Below, piece by piece: positions 6,347 through 64,000 of a DNA stretch of 64,000 nucleotides. Source of the stretch: Malacoraja senta (taxonomy: Eukaryota); the NCBI GenBank assembly GCA_038087875.1, contig CM075992.1, forward strand, positions 2,730,001 to 2,794,000, read 5' to 3'. The notes beneath the pieces are model-generated. The model was not told the origin of the DNA and ran no database searches. It saw only the letters and a program-made list of their open reading frames with translations. The position numbers and the translations under genes are program-made. How positions within the stretch are numbered: the stretch's first letter is position 1; the number at the start of each line of letters is the position of its first letter.

Positions 6347-7250
6347 CAAGTTCAAGTTCAAGTGAGTTTTTATTGTCATGTGTCTCTGATAGGACAATGA
6401 AATTCTTGCTTTGCTTCAGCACAACAGAACATAGTAGGCATTGACTACAAGGCATTCTATAAATATATACACACATGAATCAATATACTGATAAAGTGCA
6501 AATAACAGTATTGGCTAATAAAGTTCAGTGTTATGTCCGAGCCAGGTTTAATAGCCTGATGGCTGTGGGGAAGTAGCTATTCCTGAACCTGGTCGTTGCA
6601 GTCTTCAGGCTCCTGTACCTTCTACTTGAAGGTAGTAGGGAGATGAGTGTGTGGCCAGGATGGTGTGGGTCCTTGATGATACTGCCAGCCTTTTTGAGGC
6701 AGCGACTGTGATAGATCCCCTCGATGGAAGGGAGGTCAGAGCCGATGATGGACTGGGCAGTGTTTACTACTTTTTGTAGTCTTTTTCTCTCCAGGGCGCT
6801 CAAGTTGCCGAACCAAGCCACGATGCAACCGGTCAGCATGCTCTCTACTGTGCACCTGTAGAAGTTAGAGAGAGTCCTCCTTGACAAACCGACTCTCCGT
6901 AATCTTCTCAGGAAGTAGAGGCGCTGATGTGCTTTCTTAATAATGGCATCAGTGTTCTCGGACCAGGAAAGATCTTCAGATATGTGCACGCCCAGGAATT
7001 TGAAGCTCTTGACCCTTTCAACCATCGACCCGTTGATCTAAACGGGACTGTGGGTCCCCATCCTACTCCTTCCAAAGTCCACAATCAGTTCCTTGGTTTT
7101 GCTGGTGTTGAGGGCCAGGTTATTGTGCTGGCACCATATGGACAGTTGCTCGATCTCTCTTCTATACTCTGACTCATCCCCATCAGTGATATGTCCCACA
7201 ACAGTGGTGTTGTCAGCGAACTTGATGATGGAGTTCGCACTATGTCCGGC
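6347..7250 (-). mobile_element. Rex1/Babar-type LINE, 5'-truncated, young
   Basis: ORF 6531..7025 (FKFLGVHISEDLSW...KKAHQRLYFLRRLRR...FYRCTVESML) is the typical Rex/Babar C-terminal region; CTTGA(A)-type repeat tail. Confidence 0.85.
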
Positions 7251-7597
7251 AGAGATTCAAGTCAAGTCAAGTCACTTTTATTTTCTATGTTTCTATTGGG
7301 GAGAAGGCAGGCACGGGTTATTGATAGGGGACGATCAGCCATGATCATAATGAATGGCGGTGCTGGCTCGAATGGCCGAATGGCCTGCTCCTGCACCTAT
7401 TTTCTATGCTTCTATGGTTCTATTTATATAGCACATTTAAAAAACAACTCTCGTTGGCCAAAGTGCTTTACATTGGTATAAGAATAGTATAACAAACAGC
7501 AGTGGTTCATAGATTAAATACAAACATCACTACATACATATATAGCCCTCGCTCAGAGGATGTTAAGAAAGGCTTGGGAGTACAGATGAGTTTTAAG

Positions 7598-7627
7598 CAA
7601 AGATACTAGAGTACTCTAGTATCTTTG
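7598..7627. mobile_element. 30-bp perfect palindromic insertion with 8-bp TSD (hAT-like micro-element)
   Basis: CAAAGATACTAGAGT|ACTCTAGTATCTTTG flanked by GTTTTAAG at 7590-7597 and 7628-7635. Confidence 0.7.
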
Positions 7628-7959
7628 GTTTTAAGTCTCGACTTAAAGGAGTCGATGGAGGGGGCAGTTCTGATGGGATGAGGGATGCTGTCCCACAGTC
7701 TAGGAGCTGCAACTTGCTTCAATTTGCTCCTCCGTCCTCCAACCTCATCTACTGTATCCGTTGCTCAAGAAGTGGACTCTTATACATCAGCAAGACCAAA
7801 CGTACAATGGGTGACCATCTCGCAACATAAGAAATACATACAAAAAAACAATAATACAATAAATGATCAATTATACTGGGTAACCCAACATTAGTGGTTG
7901 ACATGGAAATTATTGGCTTACAATTTGTTCCTCGCAAGTGTTAAATGAAGGAGTCAGGA

Positions 7960-8238: not shown

Positions 8239-10084
8239 CTAAACTAAACTAAACTAAATCATCCTATGATTGTGTTGAAAAGCAATGTGTTCATTATGTT
8301 CAATCTGTCCACTAAATGCTGACGCAAGTGCCAAAACATTATATCAGGAAACCTGACCCCTTGATGGAGTGCTAAGCTGTATATTAAGTTATAATATTCT
8401 CTCAGTTGGTCTTCAGGTGCCATTCAACTGAGATAACCGTAATTTAAAGGTTTTAAAAGTACGTAGGCACATTTATGACCTTGATAACTATCCAACAATA
8501 GCATCTTTAATCTGGTTAACTATCCCCAAGATGCTCCACAGGAACACATATCAATTAAAATTTGACAGATATCCGAGCAAGACACCAAAAGCTGGAACAA
8601 AGAGAAGTGTTTTAAAGATAGAAAGGTTTGGAATGGATTTCCAGAGTTCAGGACCAAGATTCAGGTGAAAGCACGGCCACCTGAGGGACAATAGAAATCA
8701 GGGCTTCACAATAATGAAAAATTGGAGGAGATCCTGTAACTTTTAACCAGACAATAATCTGTGGATGTGTAGGAAGGAACTGCAGTTGCTGGTTTACATA
8801 GAAAATGCGGGAGTACCTCAGCGGGACAGGCAGCATCTCTGGATAGAAGGAATGGGTGACGTTTTGGGTCGAGACCCTTGGATCATGTGTTTTATGGCTC
8901 TGACACAATGAATACTTTAAAGTAATTACTCGCATGGGTTCTATTAGGTCATGTTTTACTACAGGCAACAAAATAATCACAAATGATAGGTAAAAATTAT
9001 GTTTACATTTTTTTTTAATTTCTTTGCATTCGTGAAGCAAAAAGTGTACAGTTGCAACATTCAAGGTTTGAGTGGCTGGTCGGAGAAATCACAGGTTATA
9101 CCACAGAAAACAGTTCCGACCAGAAATATAAATTATTTAATCCGGGCAGCAGTGAGCTGGGAAACTCCACTGGGACTAGCCTCAAGAGCCAGTTGTTGTG
9201 ACATTGGAACAGTGACCTTGATCTCAGTATAATGTGTGCAACGATAATATTGCAGAGGGTAAAAGAAGTTAGATATCATTCAAATGGATTCAATGAAATT
9301 CATGCTAAGATGAGGGAATTTAATATTCACATTCAAGTATAAAACCATTAAAATTATAATGCAGATTACACAGTCACATCTGTAACCTTTGTAGAATGTG
9401 GAAGAGAAAGCAGCATTCTATTTGATTAAATATACAAACAATGAAAGGTTGTGATTGTGAAATGAAATATTGGGAACAGATTGAAAGATAGAATATAAAA
9501 TATAATGATTTTGATTAACCTAAAATAATTAAGTGACTTGTGATGATCATCAAGTTATTGATTCTGCCCCCAATGTTGTAAAATTATTAACAACAAGCCT
9601 AACCTAATGATCTGCAGATTGAGGACTTTTGAGAGGTTATTCTTTACCAGAAACGGTAGCAGGGGCTAAAAGAGCAGGTTAGAAGCTGCAATGAGTCACG
9701 ACCTTCCTCATTCCTTAACAAGGACGAACGAGGAACATGAGAGAATACTCTCTGCTTGACAGGACTGTAACATTCATGAAGCTCAACAATCTCTAGGGTA
9801 AAGCAGTGGTGTCTTGTTCACTCCACCCATTAGTCATGTACCACTGAGTGCAAGATACATCATCTGCAAAATGCAATGCAACAATTTCCTCATGCTGTCA
9901 GAATAATACTTCTTAAACCAGCAACCTCTATTATCAAGAAGGAAAAAGCTGACAAATCCTCATCACGGCAATTAATTAACAAACCTTTGTTGATCCTTTT
10001 AGCACAAGACATTTATATCACATGGTGGACATGATCTCACCAGGACCCTTAACAATGCCAGACATCTGTGGGTAGTGCAGGTAT

Positions 10085-10760
10085 CTGATTGTGGACTTTG
10101 GAAGGAGTAGGATGGGGACCCACAGTCCCGTTTATATCAACGGGTCGATGGTTGAAAGGGTCAAGAGCTTCAAATTCCTGGGCGTGCACATCTCTGAAGA
10201 TCTTTCCTGGTCCGAGAACACTGATGCCATTATTAAGAAAGCACATCAGCGCCTCTACTTCCTGAGAAGATTACGGAGAGTCGGTTTGTCAAGGAGGACT
10301 CTCTCTAACTTCTACAGGTGCACAGTAGAGAGCATGCTAACCGGTTGCATCGTGGCTTGGTTCGGCAACTTGAGCGCCCTGGAGAGAAAAAGACTACAAA
10401 AAGTAGTAAACACTGCCCAGTCCATCATCAGCTCTGACCTCCCTTCCATCGAGGGCATCTATCACAGTCGCTGCCTCAAAAAGGCTGGCAGTATCAACAA
10501 GGACCCACACCATCCTGGCCACACACTCATCTCCCTACTACCTTCAGGTAGAAGGTACAGGAGCCTGAAGACTGCAACGACCAGGTTCAGGAATAGCTAC
10601 TTCCCCACAGCCATCAGGCTATTAAACCTGGCTCGGACATAACACTGAACTTTATTAGCCAATACTGTTATTTGCACTTTATCAGTATATTGATTCATGT
10701 GTGTATATATTTATAGAATGCCTTGTAGTCAATGCCTATGTTCTGTTGTGCTGAAGCAAA
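10085..10760 (+). mobile_element. Rex1/Babar-type LINE, 5'-truncated, young
   Basis: ORF 10091..10642 is almost identical to the ORF at 6531..7025; (CTTGA)n tail. Confidence 0.85.
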
Positions 10761-13269: not shown

Positions 13270-13416
13270 CTATTTTTCTTCCGTGGCTTCCTTTTTAACT
13301 TCTTCATATACAGGATCCTCTTCCCCGGTATTCTTCTCTCCTTCCTCCTCAGCTGCCTTTGCATTAGGGATCCATAGTCCAGAGTCAATGCAGCGCTGCA
13401 TGTTGTACTTGGCTTC
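13270..13416 (-). CDS. CDC37: Hsp90 co-chaperone Cdc37, coding exon 8 (terminal)
   Basis: ttctag|GAA GCC...; EAKYNMQRCIDSGLWIPNAKAAEEE...EEK* (147 nt, TAG stop). Confidence 0.95.
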   Translation of the reverse strand, partial: EAKYNMQRCIDSGLWIPNAKAAEEEGEKNTGEEDPVYEEVKKEATEEK

Positions 13417-13664
13417 CTAGAAGATTCAGAGTGGATTCATTTTTATTTATATGAAACAAGCACGGAAGGCAAAAGGAAACACTGCTACATGGTTTCAGGA
13501 AACCATTCACTATCTCATGCAGTCGACCAACTTTTGTTTGAGAACGCACAGTGAACCATTAAGTTACAACAATTAAACATGACCAAAATGTAACATGGAG
13601 ATAGAAACTGGGGGAACACATCAATAACAGTGCCAATCTTAAGTGTCCCTTTATTTCAGTTGGA

Positions 13665-13925
13665 GTCATACAGCATGGAAACAGGCCCTTCGGCTCAACA
13701 TCAACCAACATGTCCCATCTACACTAGTCCCATCTGCCTGCGTTTGGCCCATATCCTTCCAAACCTGATCAATCCATGTACCTGCCTATATGTTTCTTAA
13801 ACGTGGAGATAGTACCTGCTCAACTACCTCCTCCTGCAGCTCGTTCCATTCAACCAATGCCTTAGTGTGAAAAAGTTACCCCTCAGATTCCTATTAAATC
13901 ATTCCCCCCTCGCCTTAAACCTATG
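13665..13925 (-). mobile_element. CR1 LINE 3' end (HER1-like tail) in CDC37 intron 7
   Basis: Same tail sequence as 62690-62960; shares the GAAGGGCCTGTTTCC 3' motif with HE1 SINEs. Confidence 0.75.
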
Positions 13926-14464
13926 TTTAAGTTGATGGTACTTTTGCCACAAGTCACAACACTGTGGTCCAAGCCCTGATCCAGGGTTTGCACATCCCTA
14001 GACTGATGTTCAAAGAGAGCACAGCATTGTCATTTTTAATCACCAAATCCAATTCAGAATCCTTAAACCAACATTACATTTTCATTATATTTTAAAATTG
14101 CTTTATTGAGTTCACTCAGCTCCAAGATTGTTTTATCATTTGTCCCCATTCAATAAGGAATCTTCAAATACTTTTCCTCTCTAAACTAGCAGGCCAGCAA
14201 ATTGCTCTGCACTCCAAGTGCTGACCTGAAATTTGGTTTCAAGATAACCCAGACAAGAGTTGGCACTGTGACGGAACTTGCACAAGCCATTAAATCCTTT
14301 CATTCAAGAAATCACACCATGCCTTCAGCAGTGAAGATCACAAAATGTAGAACTTAGGAATAGGAGCAGCACCCCACGGGGAGAAAAATAAATACCATCA
14401 GGACAGAATTAAACACGTTGAAACAATTATGTTAGATATTGTGTGAGCCATTCGAATCACTTAC

Positions 14465-14536
14465 TGTTGGTTCCATTTTGCTGATGACATCCTGTAACAA
14501 CTGAATATCTTTTGCATCAAAACAATTCTTCATCTC
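14465..14536 (-). CDS. CDC37: Cdc37 exon 7
   Basis: tttgcag|GAG...ACA|GTAAGT; EMKNCFDAKDIQLLQDVISKMEPT (72 nt). Confidence 0.95.
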
Positions 14537-14856
14537 CTGCAAAGACAACCAACGAAGTTATGAGCAATGTTGCAAAGTTTTAGAACCTGCACAACAAAAT
14601 GCAACTTAAATAACTCAAAATTAATCGGGGATTAACATGAGGAAACTGCTTGAACTGGTAAAGGGAGCTTCTAGCAGAACTGTTACCATTTAGAAATTTA
14701 AAACTATAAATCCCAGTTAATGGAAAGTTACCACACATCAGCGAAGGACACAGATGGGAGAACGACTCAGTACAGCTTTGCCTCTGATGCGACAATGATG
14801 GAATATTTAATAATCTTCCCCAGAGCAAAAGTATCAATTTACAATGATCTACTCAC

Positions 14857-15039
14857 TATTGGAAGATTTTCATACACCTCCACAGGGTCGAGCCCACCAG
14901 GTCCCATGCGCTTCTGGCGTTCCTCCTCTTCATATTCTTTCATTGCCTTTTCTATCCTTGCTTGCGCCCGACCTCGGACCCGCTCCTTAAAGGCTTCAAG
15001 TTCATCATTAAACGCCTCAACGTACTGTTTATCAGCTGT
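14857..15039 (-). CDS. CDC37: Cdc37 exon 6
   Basis: ttccag|ACA...ATA|GTGAGT; TADKQYVEAFNDELEAFKERVRGRAQARIEKAMKEYEEEERQKRMGPGGLDPVEVYENLPI (183 nt). Confidence 0.97.
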
Positions 15040-15477
15040 CTGGAAAGCCATTGTAAACACCTCAATGTTTCCGATTCAATATAACAGCATTAATAACAGG
15101 CATTTCATTATAAGTTTGTTGAAATAGGCAAAACTTGTCAACAGTCAGGACACAAAGGGCTGGAGTAAATCAATGGGTCAGGCAGTCTCGCTGGAAACCA
15201 CAGAGAGGTGACGTTTGTGGTCAGGACCCTTCTTCAGACTGCCTGAACTGCACTGTGTCCTTTGTGTCCTTACACCAGCACTGTGTCCTTTGGTGTAAGC
15301 CAGCATCTGCAGTTCCTTGTCACCACACTTGTCAACAGTCAAGATAAAAAGGTATCTAAGGCAGTTATATCACAATAGAAAATATGATTTTTTTTTAAAT
15401 CCACAGGGAGATAGTCTGAAACAAGATAGTAGACTCAAATTGCTTGAAAATATAACCACTGCAATCCTTTTCCATAC

Positions 15478-15599
15478 CTTGATTTTTGTGAAGAACTGTC
15501 GGAAACAAGCTCTTGGGTCCACTTTAAGGCTCTTGGCAAGTTCCAGGATAAACTGCATACTATTGTTTGGTGGGCTACCTGCCCCATTAGAGCATGTTT
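15478..15599 (-). CDS. CDC37: Cdc37 exon 5 (apparent 1-nt deletion)
   Basis: ctccag|AAA...AAG|GTATGG; KHALMGQVAHQTI(GT-)MQFILELAKSLKVDPRACFRQFFTKIK; 122 nt rather than the 123 needed to keep frame. Confidence 0.93.
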
Positions 15600-16539
15600 C
15601 TGGAGAGGGAATCCATCAAAAATAATTTTAATATTAATTGTCTTTAACAGGCACTCTGAAGATTAGCTGTAGTCACGCTCAATGACAGTAAATTCCTATC
15701 CCATGACTTTGCCTCAATTTAAGTAGGGCTTTCATTTCATTCCCAATGGTCCAACCGTCCCAAGATACACTCTAACCGAGTTCCAGTGGCAGATTACTTT
15801 TAGAACAGTTATCCTATCGTGTATATTATAACACATATGCATGTGTGAAATAGTAATCCCAGAGGCTGAAATAAATAATCTACACATGCAAACTAGATAA
15901 AATATCACGCTGTAAACTGCACAGATGAATTTAAAGTGGCTTTTAAACAATTATATATCTGTAAACCATACGCAGTAAGTATAATGAGCAAACATGTCCT
16001 TATGGAAGAAACATTAATAATCACGCAAAGCTAGCTCACAAGTTCATAAGTGATAGGAGAAGAATTAAGCCATTCAGCCCATCAAGTCTACTCCGCCATT
16101 CAATCATGGCTAATCTATCTGTCCCTCCTAACCCCATTCTCCTGCCCTATTATGCGACACAGTGGATTCATCTGGGTAATATGAACATGATCAAATCTCA
16201 GTACATTGCAACATTTAAGCAGTCATATTGAAGGGTTTTACCAAATTCAATAGGAAGCATCTCACTCAAGCTGAGGAGGCTCTAGCCACGTGGTCTGATT
16301 ATTTTATTCCCCCTGGACTTTCAATGAAACTCAAAAAGCAATGACTCGTTTTGGTGACTGTTAACTATTTGGAAAGTACATCACATCTAATAAACAGGCA
16401 GCCATAATGACGGGAAAGAACGCAGAGGTAAAGACTGGTCATCATCTTGATAAACCGTGGAAAGGGATTCTAGCCGACTTGGGGAGAGCCTTCTCCTACA
16501 CCAAACCCCATCTTCCCATTTTCTAATTGCTCACTGTAC

Positions 16540-16655
16540 CTCTTCAACTTCTAAATCGATGCACCAGATGACCAGGTAATTGGCAGTCTCCTCGCACACG
16601 AGCTGGGGATTATCGGACAGATATTTCTGGCTGTCATCCCAGCGACTGAGCATGC
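16540..16655 (-). CDS. CDC37: Cdc37 exon 4
   Basis: cacag|GC ATG...GAG|GTACAG; (G)MLSRWDDSQKYLSDNPQLVCEETANYLVIWCIDLEVEE (116 nt). Confidence 0.97.
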
Positions 16656-16872
16656 CTGTGTACAGATAGGCAACAACGTTATTTTTCTTCCTCTCTTGAA
16701 ACTGACAGAGCTTCAGGCTTTGCGACTATTCACCTAATAACGTGTAAAACTGTGTGTTGTTTGATTGGTGAATGACCTCTCATTCTAGACAGATACATAC
16801 ACACACACACACAGTGGAGACTCAAGTCAGAATCATCTGTTGCACTGATTGTTGCTGTTATTTTGCAACAGA

Positions 16873-16906
<34 letters not shown>

Positions 16907-17960
16907 GCAGATACAAACACACGCAAAGTAACACTGTGACAAAGTATGTACAACTGCTGAAAACCAAAAAAAAAATTTGATTGTAAAATGCAAAAATCAG
17001 AGATAAATAAGAGGAATGGGAACTGGATTATTTTATATTGGAAATAAGAAAATATTACCCATCTTGTCCAGTAAATGTGATTGCCTTGAATTCCGTCATT
17101 GGTGCAAAAGATCGAGCCCAATATAAAAATAAAGCAAGAACAAAAACTGTCTGGACGTTGTGACTAAGGTCCTCCCGAAGGTCTACTCCGATCCCCCTCA
17201 CCGGCAGACAGGCCAGAAGAAGCCGACTACGAGTGCCTGGCTGCCGGAAAACACCAGCACTCTGGGGTAAAGAGGCCACAGGCAAACAAGCCACAGTTGG
17301 GTCAGATTAATGGTTATTGGACCAATGAATCTGATCCTTGTCAACCCTGTCCTTTACAAAACACAGGAGTTCCAGCCAGGAAGGAAAGGGAAAATGAGAG
17401 GAAGCAGGGCAGGAAGAAAGGAGAGGAGGAAAGGAGAGAACGTGGAAGACCCCTTATTAATTGTGCATCCTCAGTGACGAAGGACTACGCCCCTGTGTGG
17501 ACCTGTACCTTCTTGCACTGTTGCTCGATACTGGGAATAATGCCTACTGCGTGAGGTCACCTTACTATGAGTGCCAGTGTGGTTATAGCTGATTCCACGC
17601 CATGACTAACGCCATAATGTACACAAAATAGGAATTTGAAGGGCAGGCAGAGAAAATAAAGAATAACTTGACCAAACCAACTATTTCAAACCCTCTCTGG
17701 TTCATACAGGCTCAGAGGCCATCTGTGTAAATTGTGCACTACAAAAGGAGACTCCAAGTGAACAGACAACCCAGAGCAGGCCAGAACTGATTTTGGTTCA
17801 GTTTCAGTTGCAAAACCTCAGTTGCTTTCTCAGTCAGGCACACCTGTCATCGCGCATTCTCATCCCATGCCAAGCCAGCGCAACAATCTGGAAATTAACA
17901 TTTTGAAAGCTGACAGAAAGTGGGGCAGTCACTGGACAAGTTCAAGTTATTGCTACTTAC

Positions 17961-18069
17961 CAAAGTGCTTGACCTGTTTCTCATTCTTATCCACAAAGGT
18001 CTTGTGTTTCTTTTCTTTATCTTCGTCTGTTTCAGCGTCATTTGATTCTGAACTTACATTAAAAATGCT
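17961..18069 (-). CDS. CDC37: Cdc37 exon 3
   Basis: ccatag|AGC...TTT G|GTAAGT; SIFNVSSESNDAETDEDKEKKHKTFVDKNEKQVKHF(G) (109 nt). Confidence 0.95.
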
Positions 18070-18849
18070 CTATGGGGCAGAGACAGAAAATGCCAACATT
18101 TACCAAATGTCCACATCTTCAGTGACTTTTAATTGCTAAATCAAAGGGGAAAAAATAATTCCCTTGAAATACATTTCCACCACATATTTGCAACAATTGA
18201 AAATTGTGTATAACTCTTCAATTCTATTTTAGGGAGGTTTTATTTACATTATGTTGATCACTAATAACTTACTACTGTTGGAATGTAATAATTGGATCAA
18301 ATACCAACATGTCCTGCTTGCCCAAAAATGAGTGAAAGTGGACTATAATAGTAAGATTAAACGAGAACTTACCAGTTTGAAGTTTGATCTTTATTTTTAT
18401 GAGGAGTTACGTTGAGGGATTACGTGAAGAGCCCGCCAGGGCGCATGCGCGACATATCTTCAAAGCAGTGGTGTGAAATCACAGATACGGTTGTCGAAAT
18501 AACATAGTAAGATAAGAACAATAATACCAGCTGACCTTTATAATAGAGGGTGGGCGTGGAGGGCACGTAATCCCTCAACGTAACTCCTCATAAAATAAAG
18601 ATCAAACTTCAAACTGGTAAGTTCTCGTTTAATCTTACTATTTTACTTCGGAGTCACGTGAGTGACTACGTGAAGATTTTAAAGCTCTATGATTTCATGC
18701 CACGGAACGAGTCCATGCTTCACACCCTGCTGTCGTAGACTTGAGGAGGAAGTATGTTAACAAATCCAGACATGAATCAATTGTAAAAAGAAACAATAAG
18801 TGATTTATTAACACAAATTATAATAATGACCCCTATCCTTCGGGGCGTA

Positions 18850-19832
18850 TTATAAAACAGAACTCAAAATAGTATCTGCAAAAGTCACAGGCTTAGCAAC
18901 TGGCTTATTATAAAATTCTTGGAAGGTCTTCTCCCTGGACCATCCTGCCGTACCCAAGATGTGATCCATTGGAACCTCCATGTGCCGTGCTGCCGATGTG
19001 GCTGCAGCCCTGGTGGAATGAGATTTGTAAATATCAGTATCCACCCCTGCAGCCCCCAAAACCTGTCGAAGCCACCTAGATATTGTTTGGGTCGATACCC
19101 TGTTGTGAGGTCTTTTGTGGCTCACTAAAAGTGCCAATTCTTTGCCTCTTACTTTAGCTGTTAGTTCTATGTAAAGTAACAGATGTGTCATAACGCATAA
19201 GCGAACATCTGTAGGGTATGCCCGAAACTCTAGTTTAAGGCCTGATGACCCTGGTCTGTTTTGTTTTACCAGTTCATGAATATAAAAAGTTATATCATTT
19301 GTCCCTTTGGCCATCGAGTCCAGACGTAATTTGTGTAGCGATTGCACCCGCTGGGCCGAGACCAGTGCCATCAGCATTACCAATTTAAGGGTAAGTTTCT
19401 CCAGGGACAGGGACGTTGCTGGTGACCAACCCCGAAGCAACGTCAACACAATACTCACATCCCAAATGTTAGAGTATCTTGCCCTAGGGGGATTCGAGTT
19501 AAATATACCCCTCATTAGTTTGGAAACCAAGGGGTGAGACCCCAGTGAATGGTGGTCGAATCCCCGCCACAAATAGGTGGATAGGGCACTCCTGGCGCTG
19601 TTGATGGCACTGTAGCTAAGCCTTTCATCAAAATGAAGGTTAGCCAGGAATCCAGGACATTAGTTACAGTGGCTGAGTTATACTCAACATTAGTCCTGGA
19701 ACAATATCGTTCCCATTTCCTGATGTAAGTCAGGTACTGTTTTCTGGTAGACTCTCTTTGTGCCGCCGCGATCATGTTGATGGTTCGGTCCGTCAGTCCA
19801 AGATCCAGAAGTGGCCTATTCAAATTCTGCAA
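18850..19832 (-). pseudogene. DIRS tyrosine recombinase (split over ORFs 19515..19832 and 18850..19572)
   Basis: Catalytic-type motifs ALVSAQRVQSL, HSTRAAATS and AGWSREKTFQEFYNKP. Confidence 0.9.
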
Positions 19833-20386
19833 ATTAACAGATTAGCCCTGTCATGGCATGGATGACTTTCGCCAGTTACAGGATGGACCATCAAGTCTGG
19901 TCTTTTAGTGATGGCCATACCTGGTTCTGAAACCATGTCGAGAACCACAGGGAACCATGGCTGGGTAGGCCAGTCGGGTACTACCAAAATACCTGACGCA
20001 GAATCTTGTTGTATTTTGCGTAAGACCCGACTGATGAGGCAGAAGGGGGGAAATGCATAGAAAAACAAATTTCCCCAGTGCAGCGAAAATGCGTCCATCG
20101 CTGCTGCCCCAGGGTCTGGTTCCCACGCAACATATGTCGGCAACTGGTGGTTAAGCCTAGATGCAAATAGATCGCTATCTGGTGTTCCATATCTTGCTAT
20201 GATGTCTGCAAACACTTTGGGGTCCAACATCCATTCAGTGTTGTCATTAAATTTCCGTGACCTGGTGTCTGCCACTGAATTAAGTTTACCTGGTAGGTAA
20301 ATAGCAGATATCCAAATGTTTCTCTGGATACACCATTGCCAGATTGAATTGGCCAGATCATCACATAACGATCTGATTCCACCCAT
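19820..20386 (-). pseudogene. DIRS RNase H C-terminus plus DNA adenine methyltransferase-like domain
   Basis: YLPGKLNSVAD..SR (RNase H end), then DLFASRLN...DAFSLHW...YAFPPF...LVVPDWPTQPWF, typical of DIRS1 MT domains. Confidence 0.8.
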
Positions 20387-21737
20387 GTGATTAATATGCC
20401 ACCACAGTGGTATTATCTATTTGCAGGCGAACATGCAAATGATGCATTTTTTAACAGTACGCCTTCAAACCATAGAATGCTCACAACATTTCCAAATGAT
20501 TTATACCAAGTGTATAAAGCAAAGATGATTCATACGCATCCCATCTGCCCCCACAACTGGAGATGGTGTTGGTGGCACCCCAACCTTGAGCGCTGGCATC
20601 AGTCTGTAATACAACTGACGGGTTGCTAATAATAATGGAGCTGTAGGAACGCCGAATGTTATGTGTCCACCATCGCAGTTCCAAAATAGCTTTTGTTGGT
20701 AATTGCATTGGTCTATCGAAATGACCAGCATGATGTTTAAGTGCTCGCACCTTTGCTCTCTGTAAATTTTGATAGTGCAAAGGTCCAAAGTGTGTCGCTG
20801 GAAAAGCAGCTACGATTTTGCCAATTACCCTTGCTACTAGTCTGATAGATGGTTGACTGATGACAGCAAGGTTGCTGCAAACTTCCATTAATTCAGTTGC
20901 CTTTCCCCTAGGTAAAGTCACAGTCATGTGAACTGAATTAATGGTGAATCCCAAATAATCCATAGTCGTGGATGGTGTTAACTTTGATTTATCTGGATGT
21001 ATGATAAACCCCAGTTTCTCAAATAGACCTATGGTAGCTGTAACAGCTAAATAGGCTAATTCGTAGGTTTTATCCACGATTAGTATGTCATCTAAATACG
21101 CCATGACTACATGTTTTTGTTTCCGAAGAACCGCCATAGCTGGTTTCAGTAATTTAGTGAATAATCTGGGGGCTGAGGTCAACCCATTAGGCAGTGCTTT
21201 GTACTGCCAAAGCTGCCCCATCCAGTTAAACTTCAGATATCGGCGGTGATCCTTGTGTATAGGCACCGAATAGTATGCATCTTTTAAATCGATGCATGCC
21301 ATGAAGTAGCCTTCGGAAATCAATTGTTTGGCCGTGACAAAGGTTTCCATTTTGAAGTGAGTATACTGCACAAATGTGTTCAATTGTCTTAAATCAATAA
21401 TGATGCGACATCCACCATCTTTTTTCTTTTTTGTGAAAATGTTTGACACAAATTCTTAAGACTCATGTTGAGATCTCTCAATTACACCCTTAGTATAAAA
21501 CCTCTTAATTTCAGCATGACCATCCAACTTCTCTTGTTGTGATAGAATAAATGATCTGATGGGCGCATGCTGAACCGGAGGAAGGCGTTTGTTTTCGAAT
21601 TCAATTTCATACCCTTGAACACTATGCAGTATATAAGAATCAGAGGTTATTGATCTCCATGCCTCACTAAACCAGTGTAACCTACCACCAACAAGTGTAC
21701 CCATTGCACCCGCTGTCCTGCGAGGAACCAGACCCAC
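20387..21737 (-). pseudogene. DIRS reverse transcriptase/RNase H
   Basis: DLKDAYYSVPI, LPNGLTSAPRLFTK, YLDDILI and TDASAQGWGA; in-frame TAA at 21456-21458 and a frame break near 20480. Confidence 0.92.
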
Positions 21738-21809
21738 CTACCTCCATGGTTACCAGTGGGGTGTTCATCTCTTTTTCTTCTGCTACTTGGCCGATTGAGG
21801 TGCTGGTAT

Positions 21810-22967
21810 TCAGGGTTGGCACATCTTCCACGAAGGTCGCTCTGGGCCGCGGTCTAAAAAAGACCTTTGTCCTTGAGCTGCGGCCTTCGAGCTTTCACCA
21901 GCTTCGATGTGACGTGGCCTGCTGGTGGATGCGTAGGGGTGCTGTCGCCGAGGTATTTTCCCCGATGCCTTGATGAGCCCGGCGGCTTTTGCCTCTTCAT
22001 CCAGGTCTTTAACCTGTTTGGACAGGTTGCCCCCAAATAACAAAATTGGCGGCAGTGTGGTGTTGGTATTACACAGAGCCGCAAATTTGGGGTTCAAGGC
22101 TGGGCGGATGGAGTTCTTACGGAAACAGTTAATCTCGAACTGTGTATTGCAGAGCATCGCCCTGTATCTTGCTGCGCCTCTGTCATTTCCATGTCATCCA
22201 CCGACCAGGCAAATGCTGTAATCCCAGTTGTTAAAAGTTTAAGGGTTTTCTGCATTTGTACCTCCTGTGCCCTTACACCTGCACCAATATGTCCCCAGAT
22301 GGAGGGATTCACTGCTGGGACATTCAGTGAAGTACAGTTCCATGGTGCCAGGTATTTTGCAGTAGTTTCATTAACTGCCTGTTCTTGTAATTGATGGGCT
22401 GATAGGTAGTCAATGCTGGTTGCTAGTTGTTGTTTCAGCGGCTGCCCTGACTGTGGAGGCACCGCAAACTTTTTCACCATGCCCAGCATCTTCTCTTCTG
22501 GCACCCCCCAGCACACTTGAAGTCTCTTCAGCCAACCCTTGTTCGGAGTCAGCCCAGAAATGACTCCCAATGCTCCCCTCTGTCGAGGGAGATACATTGT
22601 GCAGCCCTGAAAAAGGTACTGCCATGGGCTTCCTCGGAAGCCCGTAGTGACTTGACTCCTGCTCACGGAGTTTGTCACGGTGAAGCAATTGCTCCACTAG
22701 CCGCTCCAGACGTGTAATGAGACTACTGTCGCTGTCTGCCGGCGGCGTTTGCTCATGGCCCGACACATCAGAGTCCATGAGCGTGTCCCATCTCTTGGCG
22801 TTCGTGTCAGCCTGTGGCGACCCAGGCTGCACAGGTGCCGGGACAGAGACCGCTGATCGCAAAGATTGCGATGCTGCAGTCGGCCGCTGCTGGCTCCCGG
22901 TACTTCCGCGGTCCTCCTCAGCCAGTTTCTTAGCGGCCCGTTTGGACTTGGTACGGGTCCTGTCCAT
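21810..22967 (-). pseudogene. DIRS gag-like ORF1 (frameshifted)
   Basis: ATG at 22967 (MDRTRTK...); overlapping ORF pieces 22410-22997, 22094-22678 and 21810-22157 lie upstream of RT. Confidence 0.7.
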
Positions 22968-23712
22968 CGTTGTCCTTCCTGGAACAGAAAGACACACGAA
23001 AAACGACCTCAGAGTAAGAAACTTACCTGTAGGTCTCTGTTTTAAGCTTACCGCTGCGGGGAGCGTTCCCCCCCCTGCCTGTCACTCTCAATTGCGCTAG
23101 CGATATGTCGCGCATGCGCCCTGGCGGGCTCTTCACATAATCCCTCAACGTGACTCCGAAGTAAAATAGACCAACGATCAAATAGCCAACTGAAGTTGAC
23201 AACTTGTATTTAATATAGTGTGTTTAAAGGAATGAAACTTCCAAAAGTGCCTGGTTTTTTTTTTTTAACTGACACAATCAAAACAAGACACATTTTCTTT
23301 TCACATTTGGTGAAAATAAAATTTTAAAATGTTTTAAAAGTCACGAGGCAAAATGAGATTGAGTTTTGGATCTAAAAAGGCAAAAAGGGGCAGATGTCCA
23401 TTGTAAAGAAAATGGAGGATGGATAAAAGGCCCAGGCTGGATAAATTTTGGTAGCTAATTAAAAAAACACTTACTGTACACGCTGCTACTTGCAATGCTT
23501 GACCTGCTTCCCATTTTTTCACAAAGGTAAGTAAATAAGTAATTTTTATTTATATAGCACTTTTAAATCAAATCACGTTGAAGCCAAAGTACTTTACAGA
23601 GAAGAAATCAGATTACCATACATCGATATAAAATAAGGTCTTGTTTGCAGTTGACATTCATCCCTGCCCTAACAGTGGACAGTGTGGAATGATGGTTCAA
23701 GATGTCACTAAC

Positions 23713-23994
23713 CTTACTGAATCCCTCTTTACTTAGTGTGTCCACATTCCAAGGCGTTGACTTCTCCTTCTTCTTCAACTGTGTCCCCTTCTTATCCCAA
23801 TCCTTCTCTTCCCTTTTCAGCAGTTTTAGTTCACCATGTAATTTTTCAATCTCTTTCTTTGCATCGTCTGTTTCCGCCACTACCAATTCATTCAGCTTCT
23901 TCTGGCACTCGCCGAGTTTGCGTTTAACATCGGTAGTGCCTTTCTCAAACTCCTCACGCTCTTTCTGTGCCTCCTCCATCCGCTCGACCCGAGC
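23713..23994 (-). CDS. CDC37: Cdc37 exon 2
   Basis: ttgcag|GCT...AAG|GTTAGT; ARVERMEEAQKERE...KKKEKSTPWNVDTLSKEGFSK (282 nt). Confidence 0.96.
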
Positions 23995-24219
23995 CTGCAA
24001 CACAAAGTTGGCAAATGCAACTTCTTTGAGCTGTTAACTATGAGCTCTGAACCTGTTAAGCAAAATCCTAGAAACATAACCTTGGGTCAGCATCATTTTT
24101 TTTGCTGATATAATGACACAAACTAGTTGTCAGTCACGCTTACCAAGACAAGTAGAGAAATAAAATCACTTTGTTTCTATAATAATAATTATCTACGGGT
24201 ATCAAAAGACAGGTTCCCT

Positions 24220-26435
24220 AGAGGGAGGAGAAAGGGTGGGGGAGCAGCAGTAGAGGGGGGGGGAGTGGAGAGAGGAGAGGGAGAGGGAAGAGGGAGGGGG
24301 CGGAGAAAGTAGGGGGAGGGGAGAGAGCGTGGGGGTAGGGGAGAGAGGAGGGGGGAGTGGGAGAGAGGGAGGGGGGTGAGAGGGGGAGGGAGAGGGGGAG
24401 AGGGAGAGAGGGGGGGAGAAGGAAGGGAGGGGGGAAGAGAGGGAGGGGGAAGAGAGGGAGGGGGAAGAGAGGGAGGGGGAAGAGATGGAGGGGGGGAGGG
24501 AGAGGGAAGAGAGGGAGGAGAGGGAGAGAGGGGGAAGAGGGAGAGAGGGGGAAGAGGGAGAGAGGGAGAGAGGGAGAGAGGGGGGTAGAAGGAGGGGGGG
24601 AAGAGAAGGAAGGGGAGGGGAGGGAGGGAGATAGGGAGGAGGGAGAGGGAGAGGGGGGGAGAGGGAGAGGGGGGGAGAGGGAGAGGGGGGGAGAGGGAGA
24701 GGGGGGAGAGGGAGAGGGGGGGAGAGGGAGAGGGGGGGAGAGGGAGAGGGGGGGAGAGGGAGAGGGGGAGAGGGGCGAGAGGGGGGAGGTGGGGAAGAGG
24801 GGGGGAGAGGGAGACAGAGGGAGAGAGGGGGAGAGAGGGGGGGAGGTGGGGAAGAGGGGGGGGAGGTGGGGAAGAGGGGGGGAGGTGGGGAAGAGGGTGG
24901 GGAGGTGGGGAAGAGGGGGGGAGGTGGGGAAGAGGGGGGGGGTGGGGGGGAGGGGGGGAGGTGGGGAAGAGGGGGGGAGGTGGGGAAGAGGGGGGGTGGG
25001 GAAGAGGGGGGGAGCTGGGGAAGAGGGGGGGTGGGGAAGAGGGGGGGTGGGGAAGAGGGGGGGGAGGTGGGGAAGAGGGGAAGAGGGGGGGAGGTGGGGA
25101 AGAGGGGGAGAGGGGGGGAGGTGGGGAGGTGGGGAAGAGGGTGGGGAGGTGGGGAAGAGGGGGGGGAGGGGGGGAAGAGGGGGGGGAGGTGGGGAAGCGG
25201 GGGGGAGGTGGGGAAGAGGGGGGGAGGTGGGGAAGAGGGGGGGAGGTGGGGAAGAGGGGGGGAGGGGGGGGAGGGGAAGAGGGGGGGAGGGGGGGGGAGG
25301 GGGGGGAGGGGAAGAGGGGGGGAGGGGGGGAGGGGAAGAGGGGGGAGGGGGGGAGGTGGGGAAGAGGGGGAGAGGTGGGGAAGAGGGGGGGGTGGGGGAG
25401 AGGTGGGGAAGAGGGGGGGGTGGGGAAGAGGGGGGGTGGGGAAGAGGGGGGGTGGGGAAGAGGGGGGGAGGGTGGGAAGAGGGGGGGGGTGGGGAAGAGG
25501 GGGAGAGGGGGGGAGGTGGGGAAGAGGGGGGGAGGTGGGGAAGAGGGGGGAGGGGGGGAGGTGGGGAAGAGGGGGGGAGGTGGGGAAGAGGGGGGGAGGT
25601 GGGGAAGAGGGGGGGGAGGTGGGGAAGAGGGGGGGAGGTGGGGAAGAGGGGGGGCGGGGGGGAGGTGGGGAAGAGGGGGGGAGGTGGGGAAGAGGGGGAG
25701 AGGTGGGAAGAGGGGGGGAGGTGGGGAAGAGGGGGGGAGGTGGGGAAGAGGGGGGGAGGGGGGGAGGTGGGGAAGAGGGGGGGAGGTGGGGAAGAGGGGG
25801 AGAGGGGGGGAGGTGGGGAAGAGGGGGGGAGGTGGGGAAGAGGGGGGGAGGTGGGGAAGAGGGGGGGAGGTGGGGAAGAGGGGGAGAGGGGGGGAGGTGG
25901 GGAAGAGGGGGGGAGGTGGGGAAGAGGGGGGGAGGTGGGGAAGAGGGGGGGAGGTGGGGAAGAGGGGGGGAGGTGGGGAAGAGGGGGGGAGGTGGGGAAG
26001 AGGGTGGGAGGTGGGGAAGAGGGGGGGAGGTGGGGAAGAGGGGGGGAGGTGGGGAAGAGGGGGGGAGGTGGGGAAGAGGGGGGGAGGTGGGGAAGAGGGG
26101 GGGAGGTGGGGAAGAGGGGGGGAGGTGGGGAAGAGGGGGAGAGGGGGGGAGGTGGGGAAGAGGGGGGGAGGTGGGGAAGAGGGGGGAGGTGGGGAAGAGG
26201 GGGGGAGGTGGGGAAGAGGGGGAGAGGGGGGGAGGTGGGGAAGAGGGGGGGAGGTGGGGAAGAGGGGGAGAGGGGGGAGGTGGGGAAGAGGGGGGGAGGT
26301 GGGGAAGAGGGGGGGAGGTGGGGAAGAGGGGGGGAGGTGGGGAAGAGGGGGGGAGGTGGGGAAGAGGGGGGGAGGTGGGGAAGAGGGGGGGAGGTGGGGA
26401 AGAGGGGGGGAGGGTGGGAGGTGGGGAAGAGGGGG
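24220..26435 (+). repeat. 2.2-kb G-rich polypurine tandem repeat in CDC37 intron 1
   Basis: GGGAGA-type simple repeat to about 24780, then an approximately 20-nt unit GAGGTGGGGAAGAGGGGGG(G); source of the long P/S- and G/R/E-rich ORFs. Confidence 0.95.
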
Positions 26436-26466
26436 AGCAGCGGCCTGCGGGGAGCGGGGCCTGTAC

Positions 26467-26568
26467 CTGGTGCCTCCATCGGAAAAGACTGGCCGTGTCA
26501 ATGTTGGGGTGAGTCTCGTCCTCATCGTCCGACACCTCGATGTGGTCCCACACGCTGTAATCCACCAT
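26467..26568 (-). CDS. CDC37: Cdc37 exon 1 (start codon)
   Basis: GCCATGG Kozak; [40 protein letters not shown], the invariant Cdc37 N-terminus including the CK2 site Ser13. Confidence 0.98.
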
Positions 26569-26720
26569 GGCCACGACCCCGCGCCGGCCGCTCGATCCCT
26601 CCACCCGCTTCTAGAAAACTCCCTGCGCCGCCGGTCCCGCCCACCGCGCACACTTCCGCTTCCGGTCCAACCGGCCACGCCCATCGGCTGCCAATCATCC
26701 GTGGAGGGGGTGGGGCTAGC
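26569..26720 (-). promoter_or_regulatory. CDC37 CpG-rich promoter/5'UTR
   Basis: Tandem ETS/GABP-type sites CCGGAAGCGGAAGTG (26651-26665, minus), CACGCCC box, CCAAT at 26691. Confidence 0.7.
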
Positions 26721-28180: not shown

Positions 28181-28551
28181 TCCTTCAAAAAGGACAGCCG
28201 CATGGTTACTCAGGAACTGCAGATGCTGCTTTACATAAAAGGGACACAAAGTGTTGGAGTAACTCAGTGGATCAGGCAACATCTCTGGAGAATGTAGATA
28301 GGTGACGGGTTTGGATCGGGACCCTTCTGGTGCACTATAAATGCTGGCTTTGCCAATGATGCTCAGATCGTGGGGGAGGGTTGGAGAAGAAAAGCAAATA
28401 CATTAACGTTGTGCTGCCCACTCACTCTAATGATTCACCCGGCAATAGCCATGTTGGTGTTTGCCTGGACTCAACAGAAGCCATTTTGTATTGCGAATAC
28501 ACTTTTAAAACTTGTTTGTGGTTCCTTGGGTTGTAATCCTACTGTTCTCAC

Positions 28552-28575
28552 CAAAGATCCGCTATAGGATCTTTG
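28552..28575. mobile_element. 24-bp hairpin insertion with 8-bp TSD (hAT-like micro-element)
   Basis: CAAAGATCC-GCTATA-GGATCTTTG flanked by GTTCTCAC at 28544-28551 and 28576-28583. Confidence 0.7.
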
Positions 28576-28614
28576 GTTCTCACTGCCCTCTACTGGATGA
28601 GCACTTAATACCAC

Positions 28615-50378: not shown

Positions 50379-50569
50379 GAGTCCAGTCAGTGATCGCTGC
50401 TCCCCCGTCTCTCATTTCACAAACGCTGCAACTCCCGATTAGCAGCCAGACCTCACTTTGTGGAACAGGAACCGCAAACCGATCCACACGCAGTCTGAGC
50501 AGGGACATTCCGATTACACACACGGGCATTACAGAGATGGATCCATTACACACCCACACACACGGTGTC

Positions 50570-51410
50570 TGTTGCACTCTCAGTCTGGTACACAGTCTCA
50601 GATACACACACTGTTACACACACACACACACACTGTCACACACCCAGTCTGTCACACACCGTTACACACGCAATATTACACACACAGTCTCTGTTACACA
50701 CACACTGTTACACAGTCTATTATACACACACTGTTACACACTCAGTCTGTTACACACACACTGTTACACACACACACTGTTACACACACACACTGTTACA
50801 CACACACTGTTACACACACACTGTTACACACACACTGTTACACACACACTGTTACACACACACACTGTTACACACACACTGTTACACACACACCGTTGCA
50901 TTCAGTCTGTTACACACACACTGTTACACACTCAGTCTGTTACACACCCAGTCTGTTACTCACACACTGTTACACACTCAGTCTGTTACACACCCAGTCT
51001 GTTACTCACACACTGTTACACACACTGTTACACACTCAGTCTGTTACACACACACTGTTACACACACACTGTTACACACTCAGTCTGTTACACACTCAGT
51101 CTGTTACACACACACTGTTACACACACACTGTTACACACACACTGTTACACACTCAGTCTGTTACACACACACTGTTACACACACACTGTTACACACTCA
51201 GTCTGTTACACACACACTGTTACACACCCAGTCTGTTACACACTCAGTCTGTTACACACACACTGTTACACACTCACTGTTACACACTCAGTCTGTTACA
51301 CACACACTGTTACGCACTCACTGTTACATTCAGTCTGTCACACACACAATATTACACACACACACTGTTACACACTCTGTTAAACATTCAGTTTGTTATA
51401 CTCAGGGTCA
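50570..51410 (+). repeat. CA-rich minisatellite (CTGTTACACACACA / CTGTTACACACTCAGT units)
   Basis: Dozens of 12-16 nt units; source of the H/T-rich ORFs in three frames. Confidence 0.95.
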
Positions 51411-63548: not shown

Positions 63549-63791
63549 TGTAGTTTCTGAGTCATTCGTAACTGTCACTGTATGTCATGTTGTTACTTGT
63601 GGGTGGAGCACCAAGGCAAATTCCTTGTATGTGAATACTTGGCCAATAAACTTACTTACTTACTTACTTAAAAGACTTCATGCTTCTATGTCAGAGTTCT
63701 GACTGCCTTATACCCCAACACCAAGCCAACTCAAGGCTATTTAAATAAAATGATCCCTTTACCTGAACTTCCCAACCTTCGTTTTTTGCAG

Positions 63792-63950
63792 TTCCTGGAC
63801 ATTGGGGAATCGTTAACCATCGTGGACGAATTCTCGGAGACGGAGCGACTGACTGGGGTCTGGTGGCGGCAGCTCTTGTCAGGGGCCATTGCGGGCGCAG
63901 TGTCACGCACCTGCACTGCCCCACTAGACCGGCTGAAGATCTACATGCAG
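63792..63950 (+). CDS. SLC25A23: SCaMC carrier exon 5 (start of carrier domain, first PX[D/E]XX[K/R] signature); gene continues beyond the window
   Basis: ttgcag|TTC...[62 protein letters not shown], 159 nt. Confidence 0.95.
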
Positions 63951-64000
63951 GTGAGGTGGGCTCAGCCAGAGACAGGGAGGTCCCCTGGGTGACCTGCAGG

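Follow-up and report, generated by a model that had tools for sequence, protein, structure and literature searches.

What kind of event leaves a perfect 30-bp palindrome between two exact copies of an 8-bp sequence in the genome of a skate, Malacoraja senta? The question is raised by positions 7590–7635 of the window, by which we mean the whole stretch of 64,000 nucleotides that was analysed, and it returns at 28552–28575, where a shorter hairpin with the same termini lies within a different 8-bp duplication. A preliminary description had proposed that the two are hAT-type insertions, and that they represent either a family of micro-MITEs made of terminal inverted repeats (TIRs) only, or a recurrent scar left by abortive gap repair or internal deletion of a hAT element. 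We put a probability of about 0.75 on another origin, in which both units are immobile excision footprints of P-superfamily (THAP9-like) cut-and-paste transposons.

Two short palindromic units and their surroundings

At the first unit, exact copies of GTTTTAAG at 7590–7597 and 7628–7635 (plus strand) enclose a perfect 30-bp palindrome at 7598–7627 (scar 1, unstranded), with the coordinates and letters originally given for it. At the second, exact copies of GTTCTCAC at 28544–28551 and 28576–28583 (plus strand), a duplication of the GT..AC type, enclose an asymmetric 24-bp hairpin at 28552–28575 (scar 2, unstranded) with 9-bp arms and a 6-nt centre; here too the letters confirm an insertion with the same termini and a different 8-bp duplication. 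The first 7 terminal nucleotides are common to the two units, and scar 2 is taken to represent a sister family of scar 1. Both carry CA..TG termini, which do not discriminate between P and hAT elements. Both targets start with GT (2/2) and one of the two ends with AC (1/2).

The claim that a transposase made both features, and duplicated the target in doing so, holds; the units with their exact duplications lie far beyond chance. An absence of excess over shuffled sequence had been named as grounds for rejecting it, and this check was run in the window: two units no longer than 60 bp were observed that have 7-bp arms and are flanked by an exact 8-bp repeat, against none in any of 100 dinucleotide shuffles, while the terminal pattern occurs twice against a mean of 0.05 in the shuffles, 0/100 of which reach 2. 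The number of palindromes with 15-bp arms expected in the window is 6.5e-5, and the chance of one exact 8-bp flank match is 1.6e-5. Folding z-scores of about −7 for the units merely restate the palindrome. A relaxed scan of the window for other CA..TG units returned 24 matches (20 in one tandem array, the two known units and two others; control mean 0.6), and longer copies were not found in the window, where neither half matches elsewhere beyond chance level.

Scar 1 breaks a 3' fragment of a LINE reverse-transcriptase frame at 7553–7713 (minus strand), recognised from the reopening of the frame and from paralogous contigs; we take this LINE to be L2-type from its motif. The stop codon of the frame lies at 7553–7555, and the LINE likeness among many paralogous contigs has its left boundary near 7713. 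Deleting the unit together with one duplicate in silico reopens the C-terminal part of the reverse-transcriptase frame. The corresponding empty site, where 7589 is joined directly to 7628 so that 38 bases are skipped and 8 letters fit either side, was present in 8, 3, 6 and 5 contigs of four related runs (among the 21 runs listed); these contigs are paralogous LINE copies, each of them short, and the whole stretch is spanned by none of those listed. Because these paralogous sites are empty and hold the 8-mer as a single copy, the 8-mer at scar 1 is a true target duplication and the palindrome is absent from the host repeat, which bears out the earlier proposal that the insertion lies in an older repeat. 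An empty site of scar 2 was not found, its sole paralogue in the window aligning only downstream of the unit. As to an orthologous scar 1 site, none of the short related-run contigs (mostly paralogous LINE copies) spans it with unique flanks, and run shares of 0.20–0.37 are mostly due to the shared LINE and were not counted as evidence of orthology.

The centre of scar 1 varies among the related-run contigs, with 7 of 12 indel rows falling at 7609–7615 (these being the 12 of 60 rows listed), and two of its centre variants are mirror images of one product. Contig depth over scar 1 does not equal copy number, and is used here solely as evidence that the centre occurs in several forms. Scar 1 is bracketed by a long inverted repeat, made up of two LINE 3' pieces (6469–7037 and 10076–10704, about 3 kb apart) that are nearly identical and oppositely oriented.

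Between the two units lies the CDC37 gene (13272–26570, minus strand), one exon of which matches the protein of Amblyraja radiata at 98% identity and those of other rays and sharks at no more than 83%, which marks the window as skate DNA. Scar 1 is about 5.7 kb beyond the last CDC37 exon, and scar 2 about 2 kb before the start of the gene. A CDC37 intron contains a DIRS-type retroelement (18450–23110) that looks young, with inverted ends and long open reverse-transcriptase and tyrosine-recombinase-like frames, and the first intron holds a tandem repeat of about 2.3 kb (24200–26500) with extreme purine skew (GC skew 0.93). Further along are a CA-rich tandem array (50400–51400) and a mitochondrial carrier gene from about 50000 on the plus strand, with a Pfam Mito_carr domain at 63672–63989.

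Relatives with the same ends in metagenome contigs

Metagenome contigs were scanned for both 12-nt arms no more than 30 bases apart, a pattern blind to units with arms shorter than 12 nt or a length above 54 bp. This gave at least 120 loci, and 102 after the removal of 18 duplicates. The family statistics that follow thus come mostly from other hosts, the skate itself contributing two units and partial contig evidence. Among the matches listed, an exact flanking repeat of 7 bp was found in 80 of 118 testable loci and one of 8 bp in 3, while repeats of 4–6 or 9–12 bp never occurred. The 102 distinct loci listed comprise 65 with exact 7-bp duplications, 13 with one mismatch, 3 with exact 8-bp duplications, 12 with none, 2 at contig edges and 7 others; relatives with the same 12-nt ends therefore mostly show 7 bp (65/102), where both window units show 8 bp. 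As a control, chance matches to the end patterns in viral contigs had a 7- or 8-bp repeat in 0/98 and 0/32 cases. The 7-bp targets among the matches listed are biased towards G48% T64% .. A64% C48% (n=65, symmetrised). A 19-nt end pattern gave no matches in viral contigs, and a single match in prokaryote genomes, which is without a partner arm and was taken as chance.

The metagenome loci are eukaryotic host DNA, as seen from six reverse-transcriptase frames and from a histone-like exon followed by a GT donor in locus L038 (900–995), presumably H2A.Z-like. In three distinct loci a second scar lies 60–800 bp from the first (L005, 462–510; L036, 1489–1514; L051, 323–354), which suggests that scars are dense or that hopping was local. 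In a minority set, 8-bp duplications go together with different inner ends, of which about 16–19 nt are kept (L032, L043, L047 and L086, and also L029, L061, L066 and L085). These loci do not stem from the assemblies that supplied the main 7-bp family, and L047, L085 and L086 have 14 terminal bases in common with scar 1. Horizontal transfer is not claimed, because only 12–14 terminal bases are common to the skate units and their metagenome relatives.

The centres of these relatives are diverse, with 59 different sequences of 25–49 bp among the 102 distinct loci listed. Exact joins of four end variants (21–23 nt) account for 67/102 of them, each simple join being equally a possible deletion from a 40-bp palindrome, and a join model that tolerates a single substitution and no more than 2 nt of filler fits 82/102, leaving 20/102 outside. 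The fit is partly circular, because the loci to be explained were also the source of the end variants; this circularity is reduced, and not removed, by the asymmetric joins and by a shuffle control, in which 40/60 units of at least 30 bp among the loci listed fit the model against 0–8 in 20 centre shuffles. Filler insertions and mixed-end joins are present, and in a check for filler templated from the ends most apparent fillers proved to be end variants. Among the loci listed, the number of loci per possible product rises with microhomology, from 0.21 at 0 nt to 1.0, 4.0 and 29 at 1, 2 and 3 nt.

The units also have a sharp upper length, 97/102 distinct loci listed being no longer than 42 bp where the pattern permitted 54. 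An AACAT motif at position 20–23 is reached by 39 ends, of which 24 join end to end; the other 15 continue with C, G, T and A 4, 4, 4 and 3 times, and these near-even next bases indicate that no shared inner sequence follows. The ceiling per end is thus 21–23 nt in the relatives. The window units are compatible with 16–17 nt, although two units cannot set a ceiling, and the skate ends are without the TAACAT motif. Three readings suit the letters of scar 1: two 16-nt pieces, one from each transposon end, that overlap in a 2-nt microhomology (TA), which is the reading tentatively adopted here; a blunt 15+15 join; or a 17+17 join with a 4-nt overlap. By analogy with the 12+17 joins of the relatives, scar 2 would be 9 nt of one end and 15–17 nt of the other.

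A donor element was also sought. Neither hAT nor P domains were found in 142 window frames of at least 85 aa (low-complexity tracts left out) or in the 120 longest of 205 metagenome-locus frames, and the window and locus frames scanned contained no full-length element with these ends. A P-type query protein sought in prokaryote and virus records was over the cut-off in 0/1, 0/401 and 0/5 cases. As no full-length element or transposase with these ends was found, the assignment to a superfamily draws solely on the ends, the duplication length, the target bias and the anatomy of the scars.

A P-type origin weighed against its rivals

We propose that a transposon would first have inserted and duplicated 8 bp of its target, a step supported directly by the duplication and the empty paralogous sites. 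On leaving, as fly P biochemistry suggests, its transposase would have made a staggered cut, at the very tip on one strand and about 16–18 nt further in on the other, so that part of the terminal inverted repeat would have stayed behind in single-stranded form on each side of the donor break. These overhangs would then have been end-joined, mostly at short microhomologies and sometimes with trimming or filler, a pattern taken from the relatives; the joining route was probably of the polymerase-theta type, the enzyme being our supposition. The product would be a duplication, two end pieces and a duplication, palindromic because both transposon ends are the same repeat. Such a scar would carry no internal transposase-binding sites and would probably be immobile, and each copy would be a record of one separate germline excision. 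We infer here that the enzyme was of P type and cut in staggered fashion, by what route the break was repaired, and that the rules of the relatives extend to the skate units.

The fly P transposase cuts the two strands at different depths, one at the tip of the element and the second 17 bases into the terminal repeat. This long staggered cut is described as unusual and characteristic of P (PMC7776569), and it leaves 17-nt single-stranded tails at the donor site. CA..TG ends and 8-bp duplications are P features too (PMC7776569), and the P target consensus has the core GTCCGGAC (PMC2577343). In Rad51-mutant flies, 14/66 isolates were a 14+2+14 product, that is, a 30-bp palindrome within an 8-bp duplication, which is a join at a 2-nt microhomology and tied for the commonest product; the fly P overhang ends in a TAACAT motif (PMC2895639, isolates in Table 1). 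The fly footprints have the same build as the scars described here, with a duplication, an end piece, microhomology or filler, an end piece and a duplication. They are alike also in their CA..TG ends and GT..AC target core, their 30-bp perfect palindrome in an 8-bp duplication resembles scar 1, and the TAACAT end of the fly overhang is the very motif at which the 7-bp metagenome families stop. The skate units are, however, natural and apparently fixed where the fly ones were induced in mutants, and the end sequence differs; the related families in other hosts keep 21–23 nt per side and duplicate 7 bp.

Other members of the superfamily show parts of the same picture. Galileo and 1360 duplicate 7 bp where P duplicates 8 bp (PMC3698922), and the Galileo target consensus is GTANTAC (PMC4168063). 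Their 7-bp (rarely 8-bp) duplications and GTANTAC target match the metagenome relatives (PMC4168063, PMC3698922), whose GT..AC target bias resembles both GTANTAC and the P core. Galileo and 1360 are long elements, and short two-ended scars are not described in the excerpts of PMC4168063 and PMC3698922. Among vertebrates, the P-like Pdre2/THAP9 elements of zebrafish have short terminal repeats of 13 bp and duplicate 8 bp, and some of their copies are internally deleted (PMC7776569, PMC8230255). Unlike the scars, these deleted copies retain subterminal repeats along with hundreds of bases.

The hAT assignment of the preliminary description had relied on the 8-bp duplications, CA..TG ends and NTNNNNAN target preference. 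The 8-bp duplication and the NTNNNNAN target are indeed likenesses, and both window targets fit that preference, as does the P consensus core. The assignment is nevertheless weak, all three features being common to P and the relatives listed having mostly 7-bp duplications. Some hAT subgroups make 7-bp duplications. In hAT excision (Ac/Ds, Tol2, Hermes) the hairpins form on the flanking DNA, and the footprints described in the excerpts affect the flank, which is either deleted or made palindromic, and contain no element ends (PMC5873905, PMC3878927). The scar units differ in consisting of element ends only, with intact duplications, and do not have the flank-derived form of a hAT footprint.

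We consider it improbable that the units are mobile TIR-only micro-MITEs, that is, 30–42-bp hairpins moved by a hAT or P transposase whose shorter forms arose by later deletions at the centre. Such mobility would explain the exact recurrence of forms at unrelated sites (one 26-mer 29 times and one 40-mer 5 times among the loci listed), and it gains from the fact that each simple join equals a deletion from the 40-mer, from a contig depth of 1700 for one centre variant in one run (depth not being copy number), and from the documented ability of miniaturisation via microhomology to found MITE families (PMC3814204). Recurrence, however, tracks microhomology length, and the 59 forms in the 102 loci listed, together with the centre variants in related runs, lack the uniformity of size and sequence of MITEs; copies so heterogeneous at the centre leave the micro-MITE option of the preliminary description weak. 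Among the loci listed, 78/102 are shorter than 40 bp, and duplications are about equally intact in 26-mers (20/30) and 40–42-mers (15/18), so the short forms do not make up a class that is older and decayed. Further points against mobility are the mixed-end joins and the insertions of filler, and a transposase cutting about 17–21 nt inside, and binding further inside, could presumably not excise such a unit (cf. PMC7776569).

Little chance is likewise given to internally deleted remnants of hAT (or other 8-bp) elements, left by flush excision, little resynthesis from the sister chromatid and end joining (abortive gap repair). Lengths should then be spread out and the copies should have inner sequence in common, whereas the element sequence here stops at 21–23 nt, and 176 kb of flanks contained three more short units and only one unpaired end. 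A hAT source is consistent with the 8-bp duplications, NTNNNNAN targets and CA..TG termini of the window units, and microhomology joining after gap repair is on record (PMC3814204), but the relatives listed have mostly 7-bp duplications and the known hAT footprints, as excerpted, retain no element ends. Of the recurrent scar suggested by the preliminary description, the scar itself probably survives; its derivation from abortive gap repair or internal hAT deletion is improbable, a hard length ceiling not being expected from abortive gap repair. Finally, a transposase outside the P superfamily might also cut deep inside its ends, in keeping with the lack of any transposase tied to these ends in the frames scanned and with skate ends that are without the fly TAACAT. 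We regard this as very improbable, because the long staggered cut is characteristic of P (PMC7776569, as excerpted) and the 7- or 8-bp duplications with GT..AC bias, together with TAACAT at the ceiling of the 7-bp families, point to P.

Putative scars as a possible record of excision

The excision-footprint mechanism is already known in flies, and P-like elements are known in zebrafish; what would be gained here, if the P-type reading holds, is the range and the family-specific cut depth. In the mainly open-access literature searched, we found no account of natural genome-wide P-like footprints in a vertebrate, or of these ends, and an earlier annotation of this end family is possible.

A bolder reading goes further, and as a whole we hold it only tentatively, at somewhat worse than even odds. 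Extrapolating from two scars in this 64-kb window, skate genomes might hold thousands to tens of thousands of fixed P-like scars, which would amount to a fossil tally of transposition events, and of germline end joining, in the past of a vertebrate. Long staggered cutting has been measured for the fly enzyme alone; it might be ancestral across P-like transposases, with a family-specific depth of about 16–19 nt in 8-bp families and 21–23 nt in 7-bp families. Within this reading, the inner cut may be placed by sequence and not by a ruler, since TAACAT is the common stopping point of three end variants that differ in length. The 12–14 identical terminal bases in skate and in non-vertebrate-looking hosts may mark one widely spread lineage.

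If the P-type reading is right, features of 20–45 bp that are probably missed by repeat masking would constitute a readable record of excision, and caution would be due before such palindromes are listed as ultra-short MITEs or regulatory hairpins. The scars would map transposase cut sites without biochemistry and sample the spectrum of end joining in a vertebrate germline, and they would mean that P-like transposons were once active in cartilaginous fish.
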